Origin: Patescibacteria group bacterium
Lineage (GTDB): Bacteria; Patescibacteriota; Patescibacteriia; UBA10025; JAHIVO01
NCBI GenBank assembly: GCA_018816445.1
Contig: JAHIVO010000028.1
Location: forward strand, 1 to 11,432
DNA length: 11,432 nucleotides
Direction of reading: 5' to 3'
Shown: in pieces, positions 206 through 11,432 of the stretch
Layout of the letters: every line of letters begins with the position of its first letter
Position numbering within the stretch: position 1 is the stretch's first letter
Made by a program: the position numbers and the translations under genes
The notes under the pieces: generated by a model
The model's input: only the letters and a program-made list of their open reading frames with translations
Told to the model about the DNA's origin: nothing
The model's database searches: none

Positions 206-236
206 AAGGCCGGAATTGAAAAGTCCCGTTTTTTGT

Positions 237-2576
237 TTACTTAATTTCTGGTAGAAATTTTATAGGCCATTGTTTTGGGTCATGGATGTACTTCAGGTCA
301 TGGATGCCGATTTTTCCTATATATAATTTTTTTAATTCATCTATCCCCTTGTCTTTAAGTAGTCTTTGGATCATCTGGTAGCCGATAAAATAAACAATAT
401 CCTTAGCAAAAGCGCCGGGTTCATTAGTATTTTCCAGACCCCTTTTAGTGCGTACACAAATACGCCAAGCTTTAGCTTTGTCTATTTTAAAGTTACTTTG
501 CAGGAAGTGGAATAGTTCTGTGAAAGACAAGTTATTGCCATGGTAAATAGCCGCGATGTTCAGGGCAGGTGAAAAATATTTTTCTCCTAAAGGTATACCC
601 AGACTGTTTTGGTTGTAAATTGCTAAACCCTCTTCAGTCGTCAGATAATTAGCTGTTCCCTGCTCAAATAAGCTGTATTTTTGCAAGCGGCCATTTTCCA
701 GGCGGAAAATATGTGTTTCAATTTCATGAGCAATCAGCGCTTTTAGACGGTTTTCAGAAAAGTTGGCTTTCTTATTAACGAAGATTGTATTTTTTTTATT
801 AATTTGCATGCCTGAAGTAGCAGTTTCCAGAATTTTTATTTTCCATCTGGTTAATTTTTTTTGGGAAAGGTACGCAGATAGGCGTTTGATTACCTCCTCA
901 GTGTTTAATTTCTTGCTAGTATCTTTTTCTAGCTTCTCATTTTTCATGAATGACAGAGCCTGCTCATATAATTCATTAGATACACTGCCAAAAAGTTTAA
1001 TTGAGTACTCCGCCATTTCCGGACGCCCAATATTGTCAATTAGTGATAGTTTATCGTCAATTTCTTTAATTTTTTCTAAGTACAACGGCATCAGCGGGTG
1101 GTCAATATTCTTTGGAATTTTTTTAATCTCGTTGCGCAGGTGGTTTATATTAAGATCATGTTTCTTGTAAATGAATTGCGGTGAGTGGACTGGTTTTTTT
1201 ATGAATTTTTTAAATTCATCATTCAGGTTTTGGGGCTTAATTCTAGCGATCAGGTGTATGCACTCATTTATTGCCAGAATTTTCTTATCAATATTTAGTA
1301 AAATTTTTTCTTCTTTTGATTCAATGGGCGCAGAACTAGTTGGTTCTGGCTTAATCTTAGAGGTATCAATTAAAAAGTCAGTCAGGTATTTGCCAGAGAG
1401 AATGGCTTTATATGGCTTGTCTTTAAAATTATCCGTAGTAAAGGGAATTTTAAGTTTTTTTTCTTTTAACACGATGGATAGCAAGCGTCCGGCTGGGGAT
1501 AATTTAATCCCCTGGTCAATGATATTGTTTTCGCTGTGGGGATCAATTTTTACGTGGATATTGGCACCATTGATTGCATTAATTATATTAATTGATTCAA
1601 AAAGGCCAATAATTGGCTTGGCAGTTTTTACATTTAATACTTTTTCTTCTTTTACTACTCGCGTAAATAAAGTTTTTCCGATTTTTACGCCTTCTTTTGT
1701 TGACATTACTTTAAGATCGGCAATCTTTTCCAATCTTTTACGCAGTAAGGTTTGGTTAGATATCTGAATGGCCAAACCTGCTCGGGCGTTGAGTTCTAGT
1801 ATTTTAATGCCATTTTTTGCTAAAGTTATGTCTACTGCCAGGTAGCCGATTTGTGATAAGTATTGGGTGCGGCTGGCCGTGGCTAAGATTTCATCCCACT
1901 GCGGGATGGCAATACTCCCGACTGGGTCACCAGTAGGCAGTCTTTTTACCAGCTTATTATGCCTTACGCCGAATGTTGTTTTGCCGGTACCAATGTCTAT
2001 GCCCAGACCAATGGCTCCTAGATGAAGATTGGCTTTACCATGAGATTCGGCAGTGGGCAGGCGTAGCATAGCAATGACCGGCACGTACTTAAAGACAATA
2101 ATCCTGATGTCAGGCAGTCCGCCTGCTTCCATAAATTTTTTGAAATAATCATGGGGTTCCAGCATCTCTTCAAAAATAACCGTGTCGCTAAGGCCGGATA
2201 TGGCGTATTTTCCATCCAGGATGCCGATACAATGCTCATATAAATCAGACCATGAAATATTTTTATTATTAACATCTGTGTATGTATCGCCGTGCCATCT
2301 TTTAATAGCCCATATTCCCTCCCCACCATAACCTTTATTCGGTTTAATCACAAAACTTGGAGGTAGGTTGCTTCTATTGAAATTCCTTAATTCAGGCAGT
2401 GAATTAATTGAAGCATAGAGCCTGGCTACCCCAACATCGCGCGCTTGCAAAAAATGTTTGGTGTGGATTTTACTGTCGGCCAATTCTTTCTTGCCTCGTG
2501 TATTATATTTTGTTATATACAGTAAATTTCTTGCGTTGATGCCGAGAATATCTGATGCTTTGCCAAAAAATGACAT
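237..2576 (-). CDS. Fusion protein: N-terminal alpha-L-glutamate-ligase-like ATP-grasp (RimK-related, sugar-transfer-associated ATP-grasp type) plus C-terminal DUF1704/MATCAP-like metallopeptidase domain (HExxxH ... EEGLA)
   Basis: 779-aa ORF. N-terminal motifs LGINARNLLYI, FVIKPNKGYGGEGIW and DIRIIVFKYVPVIAMLRLPTAESHGKANLHLGAIGLGIDIGTGKT match the rimK-related alpha-L-glutamate ligase-like family as I recall it. C-terminus has HEIETH (HExxxH) followed ~27 aa later by TEEGLAIY, matching the QEGLA motif of DUF1704. The middle is a K/I/N/E-rich linker. Stop is TAA. Confidence 0.7.
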   Translation of the reverse strand: MSFFGKASDILGINARNLLYITKYNTRGKKELADSKIHTKHFLQARDVGVARLYASINSLPELRNFNRSNLPPSFVIKPNKGYGGEGIWAIKRWHGDTYTDVNNKNISWSDLYEHCIGILDGKYAISGLSDTVIFEEMLEPHDYFKKFMEAGGLPDIRIIVFKYVPVIAMLRLPTAESHGKANLHLGAIGLGIDIGTGKTTFGVRHNKLVKRLPTGDPVGSIAIPQWDEILATASRTQYLSQIGYLAVDITLAKNGIKILELNARAGLAIQISNQTLLRKRLEKIADLKVMSTKEGVKIGKTLFTRVVKEEKVLNVKTAKPIIGLFESINIINAINGANIHVKIDPHSENNIIDQGIKLSPAGRLLSIVLKEKKLKIPFTTDNFKDKPYKAILSGKYLTDFLIDTSKIKPEPTSSAPIESKEEKILLNIDKKILAINECIHLIARIKPQNLNDEFKKFIKKPVHSPQFIYKKHDLNINHLRNEIKKIPKNIDHPLMPLYLEKIKEIDDKLSLIDNIGRPEMAEYSIKLFGSVSNELYEQALSFMKNEKLEKDTSKKLNTEEVIKRLSAYLSQKKLTRWKIKILETATSGMQINKKNTIFVNKKANFSENRLKALIAHEIETHIFRLENGRLQKYSLFEQGTANYLTTEEGLAIYNQNSLGIPLGEKYFSPALNIAAIYHGNNLSFTELFHFLQSNFKIDKAKAWRICVRTKRGLENTNEPGAFAKDIVYFIGYQMIQRLLKDKGIDELKKLYIGKIGIHDLKYIHDPKQWPIKFLPEIK

Positions 2577-2681: not shown

Positions 2682-4235
2682 CTATTCTTCAATATTTTTT
2701 TCTTTGAATAATGTTCTGAAACGGACATATTCCATAAATCTAAGCCCTGTGAATTTACCTAGGATTATTAATCCAAGTAATGGTGCCAGAACGAGTTCAG
2801 GCCATGACATTATCAGGTTTGTAAAAGCAGTCCAAACCACTAGATAATAAGCAGCTAGGGCCACTAGGATAGTTTTAAATACGCCGAACAGAGCTTCCCT
2901 TAAGCCTTCTTCAGACTGAGCTGACAGGAATTTTTCAGAAATTGTTGACATAACTAGCATAGGAAAAATTGCCAGGGAAATGGCTAGAGAAACCTGATAG
3001 TATGACAAGAACCAGATAAGTCCTAAAAATGACAAACCAATGCTAGCCAATATCAGGCCGGATTTAGGCATGTACAACAGCCTAAACCTGTTGAGAATGG
3101 ATCTTAAAATATAACTGACAGCTACAACTATTATTATTGTACCTAGGCCAAATAAAATTCCCAGGATGAGCAAGGAAAGAGCAATAACCGAAGGAGTATA
3201 AATTCCAAAAGCTGAAATACCGACTATCTGCCGGAAAAAGGCGATTACAAAAACAATAAATGGGTAAGCTAATATCAAATAAATAGTGTTAGTTGGTATG
3301 CCCTTGGTAATAAAATTTGTTATGGCATGGGAAAGAATAAAGAGCGGCGATTTTTCACTGCGTGAATCAATTACACGATATTCAATAGCTCTATTTGAGA
3401 GGTTGGTGGTTAGCAGATTATAATCATCTATTTCAAATATTGGATTAAGTGCTTCTTTACGGGTGAGCAGGATAAAAGCAGGCTGCATCACTTCAAACGA
3501 TTGAAAGGTCAGCTTTTCCGTAATACCGATATTTTGGTCAGTGATTTTTACTAATAGTTTTTTCTTTAAGTTAATTTTATTATCATCTTCCAGGTTTTGC
3601 CAGTAACGCGTGAATGACTGCAAGCCAAGGGAGGTTTGGGTGTAAAAGATTAAGCCGTCTGATTCCTTAATAAATTCTATTTCTTCACCAATGATTGAAA
3701 CCATTTTTTCTTCAGTTAAAAACCCAGTCTCTTCTCCAACGGCGGATATGATTTTTAAAAAGACGCCATTATGCGCTGCCTGGTCTACAATCAGCTCTAA
3801 TCCATCCGTTGTGTCCTTATCAGTAATTATTAATATTTTTTTGTTATAAACAAATATTGTTTTTTCAATATTGGCCTTGAATTCACCCTGCTGGATGGTT
3901 AAGGTGATTTCATGTATGCCGGTTGATTTATACTCATGCACCACTTCTTTCCCAAACTGAACAATATTATCATCTGTGAAATCCCAGCGGTATGATGGGT
4001 TAAAATCTGTTGGTAAAAGTTCTGATTCGGAAGCGTCAAATAAAGCTTTTTTATTAACCATAATAAAGTCTTCTGAAGTTATAACAGGAGATAGCTGATT
4101 TACCTCAATCCCTTCGTCGCTATCTGTTTCCAATATTGGGGCATCCTGAGCTAAGGCCATAGGACTGAAAAAAAATAGTGATATCAGCCCTATGAAGATT
4201 GTGGTCAGTAATTTTTTCATATAATTATTATACAC
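2682..4235 (-). CDS. Signal-peptide protein with extracytoplasmic PKD-like domain and C-terminal 7-TM bundle (resembles the 7TM partner proteins of RimK-like ATP-grasp systems; 7TM-transglutaminase-associated type)
   Basis: 517 aa. N-terminal signal peptide MKKLLTTIFIGLISLFFFSPMALAQ. PKD-like motif YRWDFTDDNIVQFGKEVVHEYKSTGIHEITLTI. About 7 hydrophobic helices in the last ~220 aa. Start is 2 nt after the upstream ATP-grasp stop (4238), suggesting translational coupling. Confidence 0.65.
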   Translation of the reverse strand: MYNNYMKKLLTTIFIGLISLFFFSPMALAQDAPILETDSDEGIEVNQLSPVITSEDFIMVNKKALFDASESELLPTDFNPSYRWDFTDDNIVQFGKEVVHEYKSTGIHEITLTIQQGEFKANIEKTIFVYNKKILIITDKDTTDGLELIVDQAAHNGVFLKIISAVGEETGFLTEEKMVSIIGEEIEFIKESDGLIFYTQTSLGLQSFTRYWQNLEDDNKINLKKKLLVKITDQNIGITEKLTFQSFEVMQPAFILLTRKEALNPIFEIDDYNLLTTNLSNRAIEYRVIDSRSEKSPLFILSHAITNFITKGIPTNTIYLILAYPFIVFVIAFFRQIVGISAFGIYTPSVIALSLLILGILFGLGTIIIVVAVSYILRSILNRFRLLYMPKSGLILASIGLSFLGLIWFLSYYQVSLAISLAIFPMLVMSTISEKFLSAQSEEGLREALFGVFKTILVALAAYYLVVWTAFTNLIMSWPELVLAPLLGLIILGKFTGLRFMEYVRFRTLFKEKNIEE

Positions 4236-4237
4236 GT

Positions 4238-5191
4238 TTATTTAATACATTGCATGAGCGTTTTAAGCAGTTCTTTATGCCAGATATGATAGTACATTTT
4301 CCATTGTGGATATGGAAAGCCTGCCCGTGGGTTTAATTCGAAGACATAAGGTCGGCCATTTTCAAAGCCAAAGTCCATGGCATACATGCGATTGCCCATT
4401 CTTTTGATTTTTTTATCTATTAGAAAAGCAATTTTTATTGCTTTTTTTGGCACAGCACTTTTTTTAATTTCTAGCATTTTTCCTCCCTGAGCAACATTGG
4501 CTAATAGTGAGCCTTGCTTGGGAATACGTATGTATGTTTGAACGATTCTGCCGTTCATAAGTAATATTCTCATGTCATGGCGGGTTTTACATATGCCCGG
4601 CACTCCGCTAGAGGTGTCTAAAAAATCCTGTAATATTCCATTAAATGATTTTAATTTATTTTTTATCTTTTTTTTATCAGCAATGATAATACCCTTGCCT
4701 TCGGAGCCGCGTAAGGGCTTAAAAACAACTTGTTTGGTTTTAATTTTTTTTATTTGCCGGTTAAAATCAGATTTATTCTTAATTCTATAAGTAGGCTTCA
4801 TGTATTTTTTCAGGAGTTTATAGGTGTGATATTTATTGTCCATTATGAACAGGAGATTCCATTTGTTTAATACGCTCCAGTCTTTTCCGCCATTACAATG
4901 TAAGGGAGCCTTATTAAATACGACTTTGGCATAAATTTTTTCTTTCAAGCGGAGAAATTTTCCTTTTTTAAATTCAAAACCATCCGAAAAAATGCCATTG
5001 CCCAAATGCTTTTTGGTACCGCGAACATAAAATACGTTAAATTTTGACTCAGCAAGTCTCAGGAACTCCATGATTGATTGGCGATAATTGGGGTTATCAA
5101 GCGGATAATCAGACAAGGTGCCAGACTTAGTGAGATAAACCAAATTTGGTTTGTTATTTTGATAACGCTGTTTATTCGTTACTGCTGCCAT
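4238..5191 (-). CDS. RimK-like ATP-grasp family ligase
   Basis: 317 aa. Motifs VVFKPLRGSEGKGIIIA, RHDMRILLMNGRIVQTYIRIPKQGSLLANVAQGGK and YAMDFGFENGRPYVFELNPRAGF are typical of the RimK/ATP-grasp core. First gene of a tightly packed minus-strand three-gene cluster. Confidence 0.7.
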   Translation of the reverse strand: MAAVTNKQRYQNNKPNLVYLTKSGTLSDYPLDNPNYRQSIMEFLRLAESKFNVFYVRGTKKHLGNGIFSDGFEFKKGKFLRLKEKIYAKVVFNKAPLHCNGGKDWSVLNKWNLLFIMDNKYHTYKLLKKYMKPTYRIKNKSDFNRQIKKIKTKQVVFKPLRGSEGKGIIIADKKKIKNKLKSFNGILQDFLDTSSGVPGICKTRHDMRILLMNGRIVQTYIRIPKQGSLLANVAQGGKMLEIKKSAVPKKAIKIAFLIDKKIKRMGNRMYAMDFGFENGRPYVFELNPRAGFPYPQWKMYYHIWHKELLKTLMQCIK

Positions 5192-5297
5192 AAGAAATAA
5201 TTAAATACCATAATCCAGACTCAATTTAAATTATTGTGTCCTTTTTATCTTTGTTTTTATTAGACTGGGCAAATTGGCGTTTTATTTTTTTTAAAAG

Positions 5298-5381
5298 TGC
5301 CGCGGGAGAGAATCGAACTCTCAAGGTGTTGCCACCACTGGATTTTAAGTCCAGCGCGTATACCAGTTCCGCCACCGCGGC
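5298..5381 (-). tRNA. tRNA-Leu(TAA), class II (long variable arm), CCA not encoded
   Basis: Minus-strand fold: acceptor GCCGCGG/CCGCGGC, 3-bp D-stem with long D-loop, anticodon stem CTGGA/TCCAG with loop CTTAAAA (anticodon UAA), variable-arm stem GGTG/CACC, T-arm GAGAG-TTCGATT-CTCTC, discriminator A. Confidence 0.85.
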
Positions 5382-5636
5382 TCATTTGTCAATAAGAGTA
5401 TTTTTTAACATTGCCTTTATGGATGCTTTACCTTTTGAGATTTTAAAGTATCGTTCTCTTTTTTCAGCATCATCTTTATTGTTAAATACTTCATAAAAAA
5501 TTAATTTTATAGGGAGTCTATTTTTCGTAAATGGACTTCTTCCTTTTTTATGTTCGTTTAATCTCCGAGTGAGATTATAAGTTAATCCACAGTATAATTG
5601 TTTGTTTGAAAGTAAAAGTAAATAAATGTAGTACAT
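5382..5636 (-). CDS. Small GIY-YIG nuclease family protein (COG2827/YhbQ-like, ~84 aa); ORF is open upstream to 5663
   Basis: MYYIYLLLSNKQLYCGLTYNLTRRLNEHKKG carries GIY (YIY), YIG (YCG), Arg and Glu (NEH) motifs. The TGA stop abuts tRNA-Leu position +1. About 28% GC. Confidence 0.75.
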   Translation of the reverse strand: MYYIYLLLLSNKQLYCGLTYNLTRRLNEHKKGRSPFTKNRLPIKLIFYEVFNNKDDAEKRERYFKISKGKASIKAMLKNTLIDK

Positions 5637-5654
5637 ATTTGTATGTATACCACC

Positions 5655-5705
5655 CTGCACCACTAAAGGGTGCAGGATAGCTGTGAACCCTTTAGTGGTT
5701 CACAG
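5655..5705 (-). repeat. Paired hairpins with mutually complementary loops (ctgcacc-actaaag-ggtgcag and ctgtgaacc-ctttagt-ggttcacag) in the GIY-YIG 5' leader
   Basis: Stems of 7 bp and 9 bp. The loops actaaag and ctttagt are reverse complements, so an alternative 11-bp long-range pairing (ccactaaaggg/ccctttagtgg) is possible. Confidence 0.6.
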
Positions 5706-6225: not shown

Positions 6226-6358
6226 AATTCAGCAGAGGTGGATGAGTTGAGTGGAGCGAGAGAGGGGACTCGCCCGTCCTCCGCAGAAGCAGGTTTCTGC
6301 TTCGGAGGGTGGAAACCCCCGACCTTTTCCCCCGCCTGCCAAAGCGGAGTAGAATAAT
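6226..6358. repeat. GC-rich hairpin element, second copy of the family seen at 1-205
   Basis: cctccgcagaagcagg...ctgcttcggagg stem-loop. Terminal ccaaagcggagtagaataata resembles ccaagctgcggagtataatagcgg at 166-190. Confidence 0.35.
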
Positions 6359-6404
6359 ACTCTTATATATCTAGGTTCTAATTGTCGGGGTATTAAGTTT
6401 TAAA

Positions 6405-6480
6405 TGGAGCGGCAGACCGGACTCGAACCGGCGACCTTTTCCTTGGCAAGGAAACGTTCTACCAACTGAACTACTGCCGC
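6405..6480 (-). tRNA. tRNA-Gly(GCC), CCA encoded
   Basis: Acceptor GCGGCAG/CTGCCGC, D-arm GTTC-AGTTGGTA-GAAC, anticodon stem TTTCC/GGAAA with loop TTGCCAA, T-arm GCCGG-TTCGAGT-CCGGT, discriminator T plus CCA. Confidence 0.9.
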
Positions 6481-6504
6481 GTATTTGCTGCTGCGGCGGG
6501 CAGG

Positions 6505-6538
6505 TTGGCAAGGAAACGTTCTAGCCAACTGAACTACT
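6505..6538 (-). pseudogene. Partial tRNA-Gly copy (D-arm to anticodon loop, ~33/34 nt with one 1-nt insertion) lying 24 nt 5' of the intact tRNA-Gly
   Basis: ttggcaaggaaacgttctagccaactgaactact versus tRNA-Gly ttggcaaggaaacgttctaccaactgaactact (6444-6475). The flanks do not restore an acceptor stem or anticodon stem. Confidence 0.7.
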
Positions 6539-6624
6539 CTCGCGCGTCCAAATGGTGCTATCGGTTTCATTTCTCCGCATTCGCGGAGCAACTACACCTT
6601 TCGCACGCATTTCTCCTTTTCCTC

Positions 6625-6746
6625 GCTGCGTATAATTACGCAGCTCGGATTGTTATTTTTAAATTGTTAAGAACCGTGATGAGAATCTTTTGCGATTCCT
6701 TCTTTACTCGCCGCGTCGTATAGTATATACGCAGCTCGTATTTTTT
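6625..6746 (+). repeat. Two copies of a hairpin plus T-run unit sharing tacgcagctcg (6625-6660 and 6713-6746); terminator-like on the plus strand
   Basis: gctgcgta-taat-tacgcagc followed by tcggattgttattttt. cgtata-gta-tatacg(cagctcg) followed by tattttttattt. Confidence 0.35.
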
Positions 6747-6763
6747 ATTTATACTAGCTCAAG

Positions 6764-6837
<74 letters not shown>

Positions 6838-6870
6838 TAATATTGTTATATTGTTTAAAAATTGTTAAGG
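6838..6870 (-). promoter_or_regulatory. AT-rich promoter-like motif cttaacaattt(t/a)taaa..., repeated at 6649-6672; candidate tRNA promoter (-35-like TTAACA)
   Basis: attgttatWtttWaaattgttaag occurs twice, each 5' of a tRNA or pseudo-tRNA on the minus strand. Hexamer assignment is uncertain. Confidence 0.3.
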
Positions 6871-6960
6871 TTTTGTCTCCCTGCGGGAGATGTCCCGAGG
6901 GGACACAGACCCCTGCCTGGATCCTGCCCCGCTGAATAGCGGGGACTTGGCTACGTGGCC
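6869..6960 (-). pseudogene. Degenerate copy of the tRNA-Cys 5' half (positions ~1-43) interrupted by two GC-rich hairpin insertions, one in the D-loop and one in the anticodon loop
   Basis: cttggctacgtggcc (6946-6960) equals the tRNA-Cys 5' end (6823-6837). cagacccctgcct (6906-6918) and ggttttg (6869-6875) also match tRNA-Cys. The insertions are ~27 nt (ggatcctgccccgctgaatagcggggac) and 30 nt (tctccctgcgggagatgtcccgaggggaca). Confidence 0.65.
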
Positions 6961-7058
6961 AGGCCCTTAAAAAAACAAACATATTTTATTAACTATGTAA
7001 GAATATAATAACAGAAAAATCCATTTATTACAAGTGTTTTCTGGTGGTATTTTTTTCT

Positions 7059-7085
7059 AAAAAGGCCCGTGTTAGGGCCTTTTTA
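7059..7085. terminator. Bidirectional rho-independent terminator (aggccc-gtgtta-gggcct flanked by A-run and T-run), 3' of the 3D-domain gene
   Basis: aaaaaggcccgtgttagggcctttttag: 6-bp GC stem flanked by A5 and T5. Confidence 0.6.
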
Positions 7086-7087
7086 GT

Positions 7088-7591
7088 TTAAAGAATTTCA
7101 ATTGTTGTATATCTAACTCCCCATTGCTTGGCTGCGTCGCGAGTCTCCATCCATATATCAGCCCGCTGCCAATAGCGCTGGTGCATGCGATCTTCAACAA
7201 TAAATATTTTATTACCATATTTTTCTGGGAATCTTACTTTTGTGCCAATAGGCAGAAAGTTGGCGGCGATAATTCCATCACGTACACGGCTGCCAGAAGC
7301 GGTGATAAGGGGGTCGCCTGATGTTTGATCAGGGGTAGACGAATAAGCAGTGACTGAAATTTTCAAAGACCGTTTAGCTTCTGGCTGTGGCCTGTCCGGT
7401 ATTTCCGGTAGGTGCAGTACGGGTGGTTCTTTGGCAATTGAAAAATTTATTTGTGTAGATTCAAAAATGCTTGGCTCTATTTTTATTTCACTGGCTGTAG
7501 CCTGGTATGGGAACGAGAATTCCCCGATTAGGATTATCAGTAGCACGATAATCAGGCGTTTTGCTTCAATTGAGTTAATACTTGTAAACAT
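7088..7591 (-). CDS. 3D-domain (MltA-like double-psi beta-barrel) protein with N-terminal signal/anchor; YuiC/YocH-like cell-wall hydrolase-type protein
   Basis: 167 aa. Hydrophobic N-terminus LIIVLLIILIG. The C-terminus ISVTAYSSTPDQTSGDPLITASGSRVRDGIIAANFLPIGTKVRFPEKYGNKIFIVEDRMHQRYWQRADIWMETRDAAKQWGVRYTTIEIL fits the 3D-domain consensus (TAY..G..T..G......G.IA.....P.GT...I....G...V.D.G..I.G..ID.......A..WG.R.V.V.IL). Confidence 0.85.
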   Translation of the reverse strand: MFTSINSIEAKRLIIVLLIILIGEFSFPYQATASEIKIEPSIFESTQINFSIAKEPPVLHLPEIPDRPQPEAKRSLKISVTAYSSTPDQTSGDPLITASGSRVRDGIIAANFLPIGTKVRFPEKYGNKIFIVEDRMHQRYWQRADIWMETRDAAKQWGVRYTTIEIL

Positions 7592-7672
7592 ATTAGGTTT
7601 TTTATGAATTTAATTAGAGAATTTAGCAATAATTAGCTTTCCTAGGCTAAAATTAGCTAATAACTAGGTATC

Positions 7673-7694
7673 AAAAAACACCCTATCAAGGGTG
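7673..7694 (-). terminator. Hairpin caccc-tgatag-gggtg followed by a U6 run, located ~10 nt downstream of the predicted TSS of the 3D-domain gene; attenuator-like leader element
   Basis: Minus strand reads aatctcacccttgatagggtgttttttgatacc. Confidence 0.4.
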
Positions 7695-7702
7695 AGATTT
7701 GA

Positions 7703-7738
7703 ATCGCCTATCTTAGCAAAATAGTAAAATATGTCAAC
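7703..7738 (-). promoter_or_regulatory. Sigma70-type promoter: -35 TTGACA (7733-7738), 16-nt spacer, extended -10 TGcTAAGAT (7710-7718)
   Basis: Minus strand reads ggggTTGACAtattttactatttTGcTAAGATagg, upstream of the 3D-domain gene (ATG at 7591). Confidence 0.45.
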
Positions 7739-7902
7739 CCCGTATAATAAACATACTATCCACAGGGTATTTTCCAGTATTTATTAGATTATTTAATTTT
7801 TAAAATGGCGACTGAATTTGCGGGGTCAAGGGGATATAGTATGGATGTATTTTTAAGCTTTAATTTGACTTTTTTGGTAGACTATAGAAAAAGCATAGTC
7901 TT

Positions 7903-7936: not shown

Positions 7937-8605
7937 ATGCGCTTACCAGCTAAAAAAAAATATTTGCAGATTGCCTTTAACCGGACTTGGAGTGAAGTAC
8001 GGGAGATGGTTAATTATTTGCCAGCTTCAGACAGAATACTGGTGGAAGCAGGCACTCCTTTTATAAAAAAATACGGCCAAGAGGGAATTAGCGCACTTGA
8101 TCAATGGTGGTCGGTTAGATTGGGACGGCCTGGTTACGTTGTGGCTGATTTAAAATGCATGGACCGGGGATCTACTGAAGTGGAAGAAGCCGCAGCTGCC
8201 GGAGCTTCAGCTGTTACCTGTTTGGGTTTGGCACCTATTGATACAATCAATGAGTTTATCAAAAAGTGCCAGAATTCACAGGTTGATTCTATGATAAATA
8301 TGCTGAATGTTGATTTTCCATTTGAGGTACTGCAAAAATTAAAAAGTATGCCGGATATTGTCGTGCTGCACCGCGGAGCTGACGAGGGAGTGATTAATAG
8401 AGAGAAGATGCTTAGGCTTGACCAGATTCGTCGGATTAAAGGGGCCTATAATATTTTTATTTCCGTAGCCGGTGGTGAAACATCCAGAGAAGTTATCAGT
8501 TCGGCTTTTAATGATGCTGACATTGTTGTTGTCTGGAGGACTTTTTATGAACAGCCAAAACAGACAACCCAGCTGGCAGAAGATTTTTTAAGGAATGTAA
8601 AATAA
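7937..8605 (+). CDS. OMP-decarboxylase-suprafamily enzyme of the 3-hexulose-6-phosphate synthase / 3-keto-L-gulonate-6-P decarboxylase (HPS/KGPDC) family, paralog 1
   Basis: 222 aa. KYLQIAFN (first beta-strand), VEAGTP, ADLKCMD (DxKxxD), VVLHRGADEG (conserved His), ISVAGGE and ADIVVVW follow the HPS/KGPDC motif pattern. Asn replaces the usual Asp of the LQVALD motif. Confidence 0.8.
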   Translation: MRLPAKKKYLQIAFNRTWSEVREMVNYLPASDRILVEAGTPFIKKYGQEGISALDQWWSVRLGRPGYVVADLKCMDRGSTEVEEAAAAGASAVTCLGLAPIDTINEFIKKCQNSQVDSMINMLNVDFPFEVLQKLKSMPDIVVLHRGADEGVINREKMLRLDQIRRIKGAYNIFISVAGGETSREVISSAFNDADIVVVWRTFYEQPKQTTQLAEDFLRNVK

Positions 8606-8607
8606 CC

Positions 8608-9537
8608 ATGAATCCTTCAGCCGATTCCTTTATTGAAGTTATCCGATCCTTAGTTTGGTTTGTGGTAATATTTTTAATAATATACAGTTTAAAAAAGAAT
8701 AAAAATAAAGCGACCTCGAAGGGCAAGCCCTCATCAAGCAGCCAAACTTTAATTGATCTTATTACACGTTTAAGCCAGGAGGTAGCTAAAAAGAAAGCTA
8801 TGGTGCTACCAGGCAGCCGGCCAAGTGTTGGGTCTCCCCGTTCATTGTTTGCCACCCCGGCATTATTAGCTCCACCGCCGCCTAAATTATCCCAAAAAAA
8901 CAAGTATTTGCAGGTAGCCCTTAATAGCACTTTACACGAAGCGCGGAGTATAATTTATCAGCTGCCGCAATCACACAGGATTATACTGGAGGCCGGCACC
9001 CCGCTTATGAAAATTTACGGTAATGAAGCCATTCGGGCGATGAAATCCGCCGCCTGGCCAGGCGCTTATATCGTAGCGGATATTAAAACTACTGATTTGG
9101 CAGTTCGCGAAGTTGCCGAGGTTGCCCAGGCCGGCGCTAATGCTGCAACATGCCTGGGTGTAGCCCCAGTAGAAACAATAAATGAATTTATTGCCGCTTG
9201 CCGAAAATATGGGCTTGATTCAATGGTTGATATGATGAACGTGGATAATGCGCTGATAGTGCTAAAGAAACTAAAAAAAGTTCCGGATGTAGTCATGCTG
9301 CATCGTGGTGTTGATGAAACCGAATTTTCAAAAGAAAGACAAATTCCTTTTTATCAGATTAAGCAGATTAAAGGGGCATATGATATTATGGTCTCTATTG
9401 CTGGCGGAGATCAGATTCGGGAAGTTCAGCGAGCAGTGTTTAATGACGCTGATATTGTGGTTGCGTGGAAAGATTTTTATCGCCTTAGTTCAGACACAGC
9501 TACTCTGGCTAATCAGTTTTTACATGAAGTAAAATAA
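8608..9537 (+). CDS. HPS/KGPDC-family paralog 2 with ~90-aa N-terminal extension (one predicted TM helix plus Ser/Pro-rich linker)
   Basis: 309 aa. The C-terminal 215 aa are ~45% identical to paralog 1 (KYLQVALN, LEAGTP, ADIKTTD, VMLHRGVDET, VSIAGGD, ADIVVAW). ATG lies 2 nt after the paralog-1 stop. N-terminus LVWFVVIFLIIYSL, then SSSSQ...PPPP. Confidence 0.75.
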   Translation: MNPSADSFIEVIRSLVWFVVIFLIIYSLKKNKNKATSKGKPSSSSQTLIDLITRLSQEVAKKKAMVLPGSRPSVGSPRSLFATPALLAPPPPKLSQKNKYLQVALNSTLHEARSIIYQLPQSHRIILEAGTPLMKIYGNEAIRAMKSAAWPGAYIVADIKTTDLAVREVAEVAQAGANAATCLGVAPVETINEFIAACRKYGLDSMVDMMNVDNALIVLKKLKKVPDVVMLHRGVDETEFSKERQIPFYQIKQIKGAYDIMVSIAGGDQIREVQRAVFNDADIVVAWKDFYRLSSDTATLANQFLHEVK

Positions 9538-10663: not shown

Positions 10664-11077
10664 CTAATAGCTCGTGTAATACCTGCCCCAGGACCACCAG
10701 TCCAGGTCAGGATCAATCAGGTCTTTCAGTGCCAGCGTGCGGTTGAAGAAAGTCCAGCGGCCTATTTGCCAGGTTAAAAATAAATCCGTACCCCAGTCTT
10801 TTACTGGCCACTCGGTGTCCCTGATTTCCAGCCGGTTGAACAAAAAGCCATTGATTTGCAGCTTGGCGGTAACATAGCGCGGACCCAGGCCAGCCATTAA
10901 CCAGGGTTTGTCCCCGGTCTGGTACAATAAATACCAGTTCCAGTTTTCAGCCGTATTTATGTAGTAGAGGGTGGCTTGTTTACCGATGTTCTGTTTGACT
11001 TTCAGGGTGTGGGTGGCGGCTGTGGCGTTGGTAATGAGTAGTACCAGGCAGATAAGCAGACATAAAACTGTTTTCAT
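10664..11077 (-). CDS. Signal-peptide, Trp/Tyr-rich beta-type secreted or outer-membrane-like protein of unknown function; 137 aa up to the in-frame TAG
   Basis: MKTVLCLLICLVLLITNATAA signal peptide, preceded by AAGGAG at 11085-11090 (7-nt spacing). The ORF is open upstream to 11146, but the SD supports ATG 11077. About 48% GC. Confidence 0.55.
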   Translation of the reverse strand: MKTVLCLLICLVLLITNATAATHTLKVKQNIGKQATLYYINTAENWNWYLLYQTGDKPWLMAGLGPRYVTAKLQINGFLFNRLEIRDTEWPVKDWGTDLFLTWQIGRWTFFNRTLALKDLIDPDLDWWSWGRYYTSY

Positions 11078-11094
11078 TAAAATTCTCCTTGGGT

Positions 11095-11432
11095 TTATTT
11101 GAAGAACTGAATGCTTTGGATCGGCATGAAATCGGTAAAAGCCCAAGCTTTCCAGCTACCGTCACCTGAGACATCGGTACTGTGAATAAATTCAAGCATA
11201 ATACCTTCCCGCATACCCGGTGAGTAAAGTCGTAGCATCCACCCCCTGTTTATTCCTCCATCCTTTGAGCAGCTGTGCATGTCATAGGCGGCGATCACGA
11301 AGCCGTAGATGTTTCTGTGAAGATTTTCGGGCTTTATTGCGCCGTCATCAACACCACTAATGGCAACGAACGTCACCTTCATGCCCAAAAGTTTCTGCGG
11401 TTTTGATGGCAAGCCAATACCTGGATTGGCGG
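11095..11432 (-). CDS. Hypothetical protein, 5'-truncated by the window end (frame open to 11432); no family recognised
   Basis: ...LPSKPQKLLGMKVTFVAISGVDDGAIKPENLHRNIYGFVIAAYDMHSCSKDGGINRGWMLRLYSPGMREGIMLEFIHSTDVSGDGSWKAWAFTDFMPIQSIQFFK. TAA at 11095-11097 is followed 4 nt later by the SD of the next gene. The M of the ORF track is a TTG codon and the frame stays open to the window edge. Confidence 0.45.
   Translation of the reverse strand, partial: ANPGIGLPSKPQKLLGMKVTFVAISGVDDGAIKPENLHRNIYGFVIAAYDMHSCSKDGGINRGWMLRLYSPGMREGIMLEFIHSTDVSGDGSWKAWAFTDFMPIQSIQFFK

Follow-up and report, generated by a model that had tools for sequence, protein, structure and literature searches.

The window analysed here, an 11,432-nucleotide stretch of contig JAHIVO010000028.1 from a Patescibacteria group bacterium, carries on its minus strand a gene for a protein that combines in one chain an ATP-grasp ligase domain, a degenerate retropepsin-fold domain of the RimB/RloA type and a MATCAP/DUF1704-type zinc carboxypeptidase domain, as judged from family matches, aligned motifs and a structural model (Table 1). 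Directly upstream lies the gene of a membrane protein of the 7TM_transglut family (7TM, seven-transmembrane), the predicted cytoplasmic tail of which ends in two Glu residues (EE) and is proposed below as a possible substrate of the three-domain enzyme. An earlier note on this DNA had described the gene as a fusion of a RimK-related ATP-grasp ligase with a MATCAP-type peptidase across a long linker.

Table 1. Coordinates of the three-domain gene, its membrane partner and adjoining features in the window
Feature	Position	Strand	Basis
Three-domain protein gene, complete, 779 aa	237..2576	minus	open reading frame list
ATP-grasp domain (aa 1-303), RloC / alpha-L-glutamate-ligase-like type	1668..2576	minus	Pfam, NCBIfam, Foldseek
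Linker 1 (aa 304-321), short, flexible	1614..1667	minus	pLDDT <50 at aa 308-318; poorly conserved
RimB/RloA-type retropepsin-fold domain (aa 322-412), predicted catalytically dead	1341..1613	minus	
K343-I-D345-P-H347, remnant of the AK(I/L)DTGA active-site motif	1536..1550	minus	BLASTP vs L100, hhalign
MATCAP/DUF1704-type zinc carboxypeptidase domain (aa 421-779)	240..1316	minus	Pfam, NCBIfam, Foldseek, phmmer
HEIETH (H617, E618, H622), zinc-binding and catalytic motif	711..728	minus	alignment to human MATCAP
TEEGLA, with E649 as probable third zinc ligand	621..638	minus	alignment to human MATCAP
Partner gene: signal peptide, PKD, extracytoplasmic region and 7TM_transglut, 517 aa	2682..4235	minus	Pfam
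Predicted cytoplasmic C-terminal tail of the partner, RFMEYVRFRTLFKEKNIEE-COOH, proposed substrate	2685..2741	minus	tail statistics
Stand-alone RimK-like ATP-grasp, 317 aa, first gene of the cluster	4238..5191	minus	PF08443, TIGR00768
Terminator-like hairpin directly after the stop of the fusion gene	211..228	minus	consensus scan only, weak

The gene and its product

The open reading frame (ORF) of the three-domain protein runs without interruption from an ATG start to a stop codon at 237-239, and every motif quoted in the earlier note is found in it: LGINARN at residue 11, FVIKPNKGYGGEGIW at residue 75, DIRIIVF at residue 156, HEIETH at residues 617-622 and TEEGLAIY at residues 647-654. The interval between the last two motifs, given there as about 27 residues, comes to 25 residues between H622 and E648. 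A protein of 100% identity is deposited at NCBI as 'DUF1704 domain-containing protein [Patescibacteria group bacterium]'.

A database cluster search returned more than 120 full-length homologues with 45-70% identity, and all of the best 120 clusters, drawn from independent NCBI, JGI, ENA and Logan assemblies, share the precomputed PF14397 + PF08014 architecture at lengths of 761-811 residues. Gene loci from 80 species-representative GTDB genomes, some on contigs longer than 1 Mb, are colinear with query residues 1 to ~776; they belong to Patescibacteria (Kerfeld-, Magasanik-, Uhr- and Parcubacteria), Peregrinibacteria/Peribacteria and Gracilibacteria. The window on its own cannot exclude that an assembly or frameshift error joined two or three separate genes, an objection that the earlier note had itself raised, and in one related locus (L068; related loci carry L numbers) the gene is present as two ORFs. 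The artefact is nevertheless refuted by the homologue clusters and genome loci, the domain junctions being conserved and AlphaFold giving one continuous chain, so that its probability is negligible and the ORF is taken as a genuine cytoplasmic three-domain protein.

A few loci (L068 5661-7999; L023 6505-8316) seem to carry a broken or truncated fusion gene when it is read with genetic code 11. The breaks in Gracilibacteria probably reflect UGA being read as Gly (code 25), and the split in L068 may be a true frameshift or a pseudogene. Many 'MAG TPA_asm' loci (L008, L010, L020, L024 and others) are titled 'uncultured Gammaproteobacteria bacterium' despite a typically Candidate Phyla Radiation (CPR) module, which suggests placeholder or wrong taxonomic labels because of their flanking genes and the 45-66% identity of their products to Patescibacteria proteins.

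The outer catalytic domains

The N-terminal domain bears out the RimK-related assignment of the earlier note. It matches ATPgrasp_ST (PF14397; residues 16-285, E 1.6e-54, 185.5 bits against a threshold of 31.4) and the NCBIfam model TIGR02291 ('alpha-L-glutamate ligase-like protein'; residues 7-292, model positions 9-297 of 317), and is 38% identical to the Legionella adelaidensis 'alpha-L-glutamate ligase-like protein' of an rloABC-like operon. An AlphaFold2 model built from 69 homologues has a mean predicted local distance difference test score (pLDDT) of 89.3, and its best match among solved structures is RimK (7qys/5zct; Foldseek E ~1e-8), with further matches of the ATP-grasp fold to LysX/ArgX and Ddl. 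Throughout the 69-homologue alignment K78, the G82/G85/G87 loop, E136/E137, D249, E261-x-N263 and R265 are invariant, and K78 and E261-x-N263 are conserved in 78-79 of 79 genome loci. The fold and the Lys, Gly-rich loop and E-x-N elements of the ATP-grasp superfamily are thus all in place, the residues being kept in 78/79 loci; in this superfamily they serve as the ATP-binding Lys, the Gly-rich loop and the Mg-binding E-x-N. With its nucleotide- and Mg-binding residues conserved, the domain is assigned to the ATP-grasp carboxylate-amine ligases of the RloC / alpha-L-glutamate-ligase-like clade.

The C-terminal domain matches the MATCAP family (PF08014; residues 462-766, E 5e-42, 144.6 bits against a threshold of 27) and the NCBIfam model TIGR02421 ('QEGLA motif protein') at residues 430-765, in agreement with the DUF1704/MATCAP assignment of the earlier note. 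The corresponding part of the AlphaFold2 model overlays human MATCAP (7z5g; Foldseek E 1.4e-13, target TM 0.64, 349 columns), to which phmmer also gives a match (E 5e-11). When the two are aligned, HEIETH falls on HEIGTH (H280, E281, H285), TEEGLA on TEEGLA (E316) and CVRTKRG on CVRAKRG, so the HExxxH and the downstream Glu occupy the places expected of the gluzincin-like site that the earlier note had foreseen. In the structure of human MATCAP, E316 is reportedly the third zinc ligand. H617, E618, H622, E648 and E649 are invariant in the 69 homologues, with E649-G650 fixed, and the HExxxH and EEGLA motifs occur together in 78 of 79 genome loci, E648 sometimes being replaced by Gln as in the proteobacterial QEGLA proteins. 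An unrelated family with poorly conserved motifs, which would have spoken against the assignment, is thus not what is found. In the microtubule-bound MATCAP chain of the PDB, residue 281 is Gln, and the E281A variant is catalytically dead (PMC10499314). Domain 3 is accordingly a MATCAP-type zinc peptidase with an intact HExxxH...E site, and both outer domains look catalytically competent.

The middle domain

The stretch between the two outer domains, described in the earlier note as a low-complexity K/I/N-rich linker of about 250 residues, proved to contain a third domain. Its sequence entropy (3.86 bits over residues 300-550 versus 4.07 for the ATP-grasp domain) is near that of the ATP-grasp domain, and its composition is that of an AT-rich genome and not of low complexity. 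In the AlphaFold2 model only residues 1-12, 308-318 and 414-416 are disordered, pLDDT falling below 50 at 308-318 and 414-416, and the only linker-like segments are residues 304-321 and 413-420, between the end of the ATP-grasp domain at about residue 303 and the start of the helical MATCAP-type domain at about residue 421. Residues 322-412 form a confidently modelled β domain (pLDDT 80-92) with six β-strands within 322-394, a retropepsin half-barrel that is closest to DUF785 structures.

The resemblance of the stretch 'GLFE...VKIDPH...GKYLTDFLID' to the RimB/RloA (DUF785) retropepsin-like peptidases was a lead that was then tested. Neither the window domain nor 35 close homologues reach the Pfam gathering threshold of PF05618 (DUF785), sequence methods applied to the middle domain of the window alone recovered no family link, and hhalign against three DUF785 proteins of the PDB placed GLfE..AKIDPH onto GryE..AKmDTGA with a probability of only 5%. 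The link is provided by an 800-residue metagenome homologue (L100), which shares 36% identity with the window protein along its full length (E 7e-127) and lies above the Pfam thresholds for all three domains (ATPgrasp_ST 231.9, PF05618 37.3 against a threshold of 27, MATCAP 148.1 bits); the homologous domain of L095 also passes for PF05618 (28.4 bits, threshold 27). In the BLASTP alignment the L100 segment AKIDTGAGLSSI lies along VKIDPHSENNII of the window protein, with AKIDTGA opposite VKIDPH, and D345 therefore stands at the place of the catalytic Asp and K343 at that of the Lys that contacts poly-Glu, equivalent to K46 of RloA (PMC12239564).

The Thr-Gly-Ala part of DTGA is gone from the window protein, which reads D345-P-H-S. 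DTG was found in none of 120 close homologues, most of which have DPH, and in at least 8 of the 120 the motif Asp is replaced by Asn, the same change that inactivates RloA (D48N; PMC12239564). Peregrinibacteria orthologues keep AKID[TS]G and give sub-threshold matches to families of the retropepsin clan. The middle domain also evolves the fastest of the three, with a mean identity to the window protein of 34%, versus 56% for the ATP-grasp domain and 50% for the catalytic half of MATCAP, its near-invariant positions across the 69 homologues being G324, E327, K343, I344, D345 and F401. Domain 2 is thus a RimB/RloA-type retropepsin fold in which DTGA has decayed to DPH; it is predicted to be a pseudo-protease kept for binding or regulation, that is, a pseudo-enzyme homologue of PF05618 and not an active member. 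The middle domain of more than 1000 database proteins, at present unlabelled, can now be labelled as degenerate RimB-like.

Split and fused relatives

CPR metagenome relatives were found from 7TM relatives with different tails, in a scan based on a 6-sequence alignment. They include 49 distinct two-domain proteins (435-512 residues) made up of ATP-grasp and retropepsin domains, 47 of which carry the canonical AK[IV]D[TS]GA. A separate MATCAP gene lies just downstream in at least eight two-domain loci; that of L095, for example, encodes a 373-residue PF08014 protein (143 bits) and begins 3 nucleotides past the ligase-retropepsin gene. In L100 the three domains are fused with DTGA intact, and in L118 and L124 they are fused with degenerate motifs. 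The series shows the direction of change: MATCAP was recruited, then fused, and the retropepsin site was then lost.

The earlier note took the fusion as a Rosetta stone, on the premise that the two families are elsewhere encoded by separate neighbouring genes. This holds for CPR loci such as L095, where a separate MATCAP gene follows the ATP-grasp gene, but in the proteobacterial replicons inspected the ATP-grasp neighbour of MATCAP is GshB-like and not TIGR02291-like; the TIGR02291-type ligases there lie in rloABC-like operons without MATCAP. On Sinorhizobium medicae pSMED01 (L006 3494-9207) a 627-residue MATCAP protein gene overlaps the start of a GshB-like ATP-grasp gene, with a separate FGase (N-formylglutamate amidohydrolase-like) gene 2 kb upstream of it; a Vibrio sp. 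HDW18 plasmid (L004 6137-8128) encodes a 663-residue fusion of FGase and MATCAP; and a Photobacterium QEGLA gene that adjoins 'GshB' is induced 27-fold at low salinity. A match on a Halobacterium plasmid is an unannotated fragment beside transposases.

Further genes stand next to some of the split modules. In L095 the separate MATCAP gene is followed by a 490-residue double ATP-grasp-like gene (6355-7827) whose product gives a weak tubulin-tyrosine-ligase match (PF03133, 27.3 bits, with no stretch passing alone), and ATP-grasp genes of about 485 residues recur in L096, L098, L106 and L117. The two-domain module is followed in L090 (7509-10793) by a RimK-like ATP-grasp and two Mur-ligase-family genes, and in L110 (5126-7106) by a glycosyltransferase and a GNAT-like gene, neighbours that hint at envelope peptide or glycan chemistry.

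The membrane partner and its C-terminal tail

The partner begins with a signal-peptide-like N-terminus and carries a 7TM_transglut domain (PF14402; 92.4 bits, residues 316-509) and a PKD domain (residues 54-118), separated by an acidic region of about 190 residues without family assignment. The RloB model NF052267 matches its C-terminal half only (model positions 312-508, 57 bits against a cut-off of 900), and the inactive transglutaminase ectodomain of PF14400 has no match in the partner, which has PKD there instead. In 75 of the 79 loci that could be assessed, the fusion gene has a 7TM homologue directly upstream in the same orientation. This arrangement, a 7TM_transglut gene directly before an ATP-grasp gene, is that of RloABC-type loci and follows the order of a Legionella plasmid operon, where a PF05618 protease, a PF14400 + PF14402 membrane protein and a PF14397 ligase succeed one another as a canonical rloABC. 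No separate gene for a secreted RloA protease lies within the window; the corresponding fold is here fused, degenerate and without a signal peptide.

The partner gene begins a few bases past the stop of the stand-alone ATP-grasp gene, the product of which matches PF08443 (E 2.9e-11) and, below the cut-off, TIGR00768 (52 bits). A homologue of this gene is present in only 23 of 83 loci, and extra RimK-like ATP-grasps also recur in split-type loci. It is therefore rejected as a core component and regarded as accessory, the core module being the 7TM protein and the three-domain enzyme.

The 7TM protein of the window ends in ...RFRTLFKEKNIEE. This tail should be cytoplasmic, because the PKD ectodomain is extracytoplasmic and is followed by seven helices, and its five Lys/Arg residues fit this orientation. 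All 78 CPR 7TM homologues encoded beside three-domain enzymes terminate in Glu, nearly all of them in EE, EEE or up to EEEEE, although tail positions -3 to -8 vary freely and the 7TM C-domains are only 33-86% identical. Among unique sequences, 76 of the 77 partners of three-domain enzymes are E-terminal (67 with EE) versus 3 of the 49 partners of two-domain proteins, a difference with a Fisher p of ~1e-29 that is not corrected for phylogeny. As background, 0.6% of the other ORFs of at least 150 residues in the same loci end in EE. Legionella RloB homologues have basic tails and end in E in 14 of 120 cases, a narrow control for tail composition since the search returned only Legionellales of 72-84% identity; the RloB tails of Aeromonas are basic as well. 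The replacement of an endopeptidase module by a carboxypeptidase module thus coincides with the appearance of partners that end, like RpsF or tubulin, in EE.

Conservation of the EE codons as the ribosome-binding site of the downstream gene was considered and rejected. The terminal Glu codons are a mixture (125 GAA versus 22 GAG) and EE is kept in 11 of 12 loci in which the downstream start lies 44-436 nucleotides away, so that a Shine-Dalgarno constraint does not account for them. In 150 representatives of the 7TM_transglut C-domain (50% identity clusters), GLRxxEYxRFR is kept after the last helix and leads into either an acidic ...EE tail or a tail rich in Lys/Arg.

A possible role for the three-domain enzyme

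The three-domain enzyme may extend and trim the EE tail of its 7TM partner, a reading that is favoured only tentatively. The earlier note had taken the fusion to unite writer and eraser of one modification; that proposal is here given a candidate substrate, the EE tail. The ATP-grasp domain would add amino acids, most likely alpha-linked Glu as RimK does, to a free carboxyl terminus, and the MATCAP domain would remove the added residues one at a time from that end and so control how long the extension becomes. The dead retropepsin domain would no longer cut but may keep a role in poly-Glu binding, in stimulation of the ligase as RimB does, or in both. The acceptor would be the cytoplasmic EE tail, which is the most speculative step, and how far the tail is modified would tune the activity of the 7TM protein at the envelope, whatever this activity is. 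That CPR bacteria use, on this tail, a reversible C-terminal glutamylation or another cycle of amino-acid addition and removal, with a writer (ATP-grasp), a reader or regulator (the dead RimB-like domain) and an eraser (MATCAP) in one polypeptide, is on the doubtful side.

The tail is proposed as the acceptor because it ends in EE as does ribosomal protein S6, the EE carboxyl terminus of which is what RimK extends (PMC11957791). RimK polyglutamylates RpsF and makes poly-alpha-Glu, which RimB trims; RimB raises RimK's ATPase activity approximately fourfold, and an active RimB-RimK hybrid exists (PMC11957791). The MATCAP/TMCP enzymes, for their part, act as deglutamylases and take Tyr and Glu off the C-termini of acidic tubulin tails, EE being what remains on alpha-tubulin after MATCAP has removed Tyr (PMC10499314).

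Several observations weigh against this proposal. The equivalog cut-offs of NCBIfam are missed by both outer domains, although their scores stand well above noise, with 240.5 bits against 314.2 for TIGR02291 and 163.2 bits against 338.65 for TIGR02421, the C-terminal domain being a relative of the TIGR02421 family and not an equivalog. The AlphaFold2 model does not predict how the domains are arranged relative to one another (predicted template modelling score, pTM, 0.54), and one chain that makes and cleaves the same bond would run a futile cycle if its ligase and peptidase were not regulated. The partner tail in L100 ends in ...RKKHRA despite the fused MATCAP and the intact DTGA, and basic 7TM tails occur in at least eight split-type loci with a separate MATCAP, for which reason a strict rule of MATCAP if and only if an EE tail was rejected; conversely, the two-domain locus L125 has a ...EDREE tail.

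Synthesis of a free acidic polymer is the main rival explanation. As in an Rlo-like system, the ATP-grasp domain or domains would make a free acidic peptide, for instance poly-alpha-glutamate, that the 7TM protein exports, anchors or senses, while MATCAP (ancestrally the retropepsin) limits its length or recycles it in the cytoplasm and the EE tail is at most a primer or a product mimic. Free poly-alpha-Glu is indeed a product of RimK, in vitro and, in the presence of RimB, also in vivo (PMC11957791). The RloA proteases are found in the periplasm and cut stretches of eight or more Glu, and in P. aeruginosa deleting rloB or rloC suppresses the defects seen in a triple RloA protease mutant, as if the product of RloB and RloC needed degrading (PMC12239564); these proteobacterial genetics suggest a periplasmic product and not a modified cytoplasmic tail. 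Most relatives, namely the two-domain proteins, the split MATCAP loci and L100, pair with basic-tailed 7TM proteins, the tails of which could bind an acidic polymer non-covalently, and the order of 7TM then ATP-grasp is common to the Legionella rloABC-like operon. The polymer would nevertheless leave unexplained why 76/77 partners of three-domain enzymes end in E or EE versus 3/49 of two-domain partners; moreover, no RloC-type ligase has a shown polymer product, and the peptidase modules are here all cytoplasmic whereas RloA is secreted. A free polymer is on balance considered unlikely.

Two lesser rivals concern the tail and the chemistry of the ligase. Instead of serving as an acceptor, the EE terminus could act as a docking motif specific to the clade, an unmodified pseudo-substrate bound by MATCAP, the pseudo-retropepsin or both, which would tether the enzyme to its membrane partner while it acts on another protein (ribosomal protein S6, for example) or on a small peptide. 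MATCAP-type enzymes do recognise acidic C-terminal tails (PMC10499314), RloA/RimB bind poly-Glu through conserved Lys/Arg that include the Lys of AKxDTGA, here K343, and the number of encoded terminal Glu residues varies from 1 to 5, as for a loose binding motif. An intact carboxypeptidase site (H617/E618/H622/E649 invariant) would, however, be expected to trim a bound EE and not merely to hold it, and the gene neighbourhood indicates no alternative substrate, which makes docking improbable. More improbable again is that the ATP-grasp amidates a sugar-linked or muropeptide carboxylate of the envelope, with the peptidase editing the peptide and the 7TM protein serving as flippase or scaffold. 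The Pfam name of PF14397, 'sugar-transfer associated', allows an envelope glycan or peptide as substrate, as do the Mur-ligase genes after the module in L090 and the glycosyltransferase and GNAT genes in L110, and RloB-type genes, when mutated, give envelope, vesicle and cell-shape phenotypes (PMC12239564; PMC12096838). Such neighbours are not conserved, however, and are absent from the window and from L001 and L003; for all three domains, the nearest relatives that have been characterised act on protein alpha-peptide chains; and the EE tail would again be unexplained.

Were the EE tail in fact extended and trimmed by the three-domain enzyme, the module would represent in prokaryotes what the tubulin tail code is in eukaryotes, would provide the first membrane-protein substrate for a RimK-like system, and would hint at the targets of RloABC systems and bacterial DUF1704 proteins. 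The question of the substrate also becomes a direct experiment with a defined peptide of 13-19 residues.

Other features of the window

Promoter-like sites in the window were not above chance, and an Rfam scan of the window returned only three tRNAs. The tRNA-Leu(UAA) (5297-5381, minus) begins exactly where a 93-residue GIY-YIG ORF (5382-5663, minus) ends, and tRNA-Gly (6405-6480) and tRNA-Cys (6764-6837) lie in the GC-richer stretch of the window. Tandem paralogues of the orotidine monophosphate (OMP)-decarboxylase/HUMPS type at 7937-8605 and 8608-9537 (both plus) are closest to 3-hexulose-6-phosphate synthase (NF009833, 158 and 173 bits), below all equivalog cut-offs, and the second is extended at its N-terminus by about 95 residues, which include a hydrophobic segment and a stretch rich in Pro and Ser. 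Two further ORFs, at 7088-7591 (minus, 167 residues) and 10664-11146 (minus, 160 residues), begin with hydrophobic N-termini and match no family of Pfam or NCBIfam; the C-terminal region of the former may resemble small cell-wall-binding or lytic domains.

Comparison with known systems

The window protein is a member of PF14397 and of PF08014, is not an equivalog of TIGR02291 or TIGR02421, and is a degenerate homologue of PF05618. Public databases already record its two-domain Pfam architecture, which NCBI and JGI names reflect as well, and the fusion as such is no discovery; literature searches (DUF1704, QEGLA, and MATCAP with ATP-grasp) found no description of it, though the survey of Iyer et al. 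2009 may have noted the association.

The RimK-RimB system resembles that of the window in that an ATP-grasp alpha-L-glutamate ligase is physically coupled to a partner of the DUF785/PF05618 retropepsin fold, acts on an ...EE C-terminus and is both counteracted and stimulated by the RimB peptidase, and the RimBK hybrid is a precedent for both modules in one chain (PMC11957791). The window ligase, however, belongs to the PF14397/TIGR02291 clade, has no TIGR00768 match and in some homologues only a faint or weak one to PF08443; the order of ligase then retropepsin is the reverse of RimBK; the retropepsin lacks DTGA; a MATCAP metallocarboxypeptidase is added as a third domain; and the partner is a 7TM membrane protein instead of a ribosomal protein.

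The RloABC operon of Pseudomonas and other Gammaproteobacteria functions in osmotic-stress tolerance and shares with the window its ligase and 7TM families and their gene order. In contrast to the fused, cytoplasmic and degenerate fold found here, RloA is a separate, secreted and active protease; RloB has the inactive transglutaminase ectodomain (PF14400), whereas the window partner has PKD and an unassigned region; and Rlo operons are without MATCAP, with RloB tails that are basic and not EE.

The proteobacterial QEGLA/DUF1704 proteins belong to the same Pfam family, bear HExxxH and (Q/E)EGLA and have a recurring ATP-grasp neighbour, but they are stand-alone (426 residues), fused to FGase (Vibrio, 663 residues) or provided with another N-terminal extension, and none of the loci examined showed a 7TM partner. 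The direct relatives of the window protein are the CPR two-domain proteins (L090, L091, L095), which share the PKD 7TM partner family, the gene order and the succession of ATP-grasp then PF05618, some with a separate MATCAP gene immediately downstream. They differ in keeping AK[IV]D[TS]GA, in lacking a fused MATCAP and in the basic tails of their partners (46/49 not Glu-ending).

The tubulin cycle of TTL/TTLL and MATCAP (TMCP1/2) offers the parallel in eukaryotes: there too an ATP-grasp enzyme adds and an HExxxH...E carboxypeptidase removes residues on an acidic ...EE tail. The window enzyme differs in being prokaryotic and single-chain, its ATP-grasp is not of the TTL family, its presumed target is a membrane protein and its identity to MATCAP is only ~21%. 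Three poorly understood groups, the bacterial MATCAP/DUF1704 homologues, the RloC-type ligases and the 7TM_transglut proteins, meet at this locus, and the ATP-grasp/MATCAP pairing that underlies the tubulin tail cycle of eukaryotes finds in it a tight parallel among prokaryotes. As far as can be told, three results are new: what the middle domain is and how it has decayed, the series from split to fused forms, and the association with EE tails.

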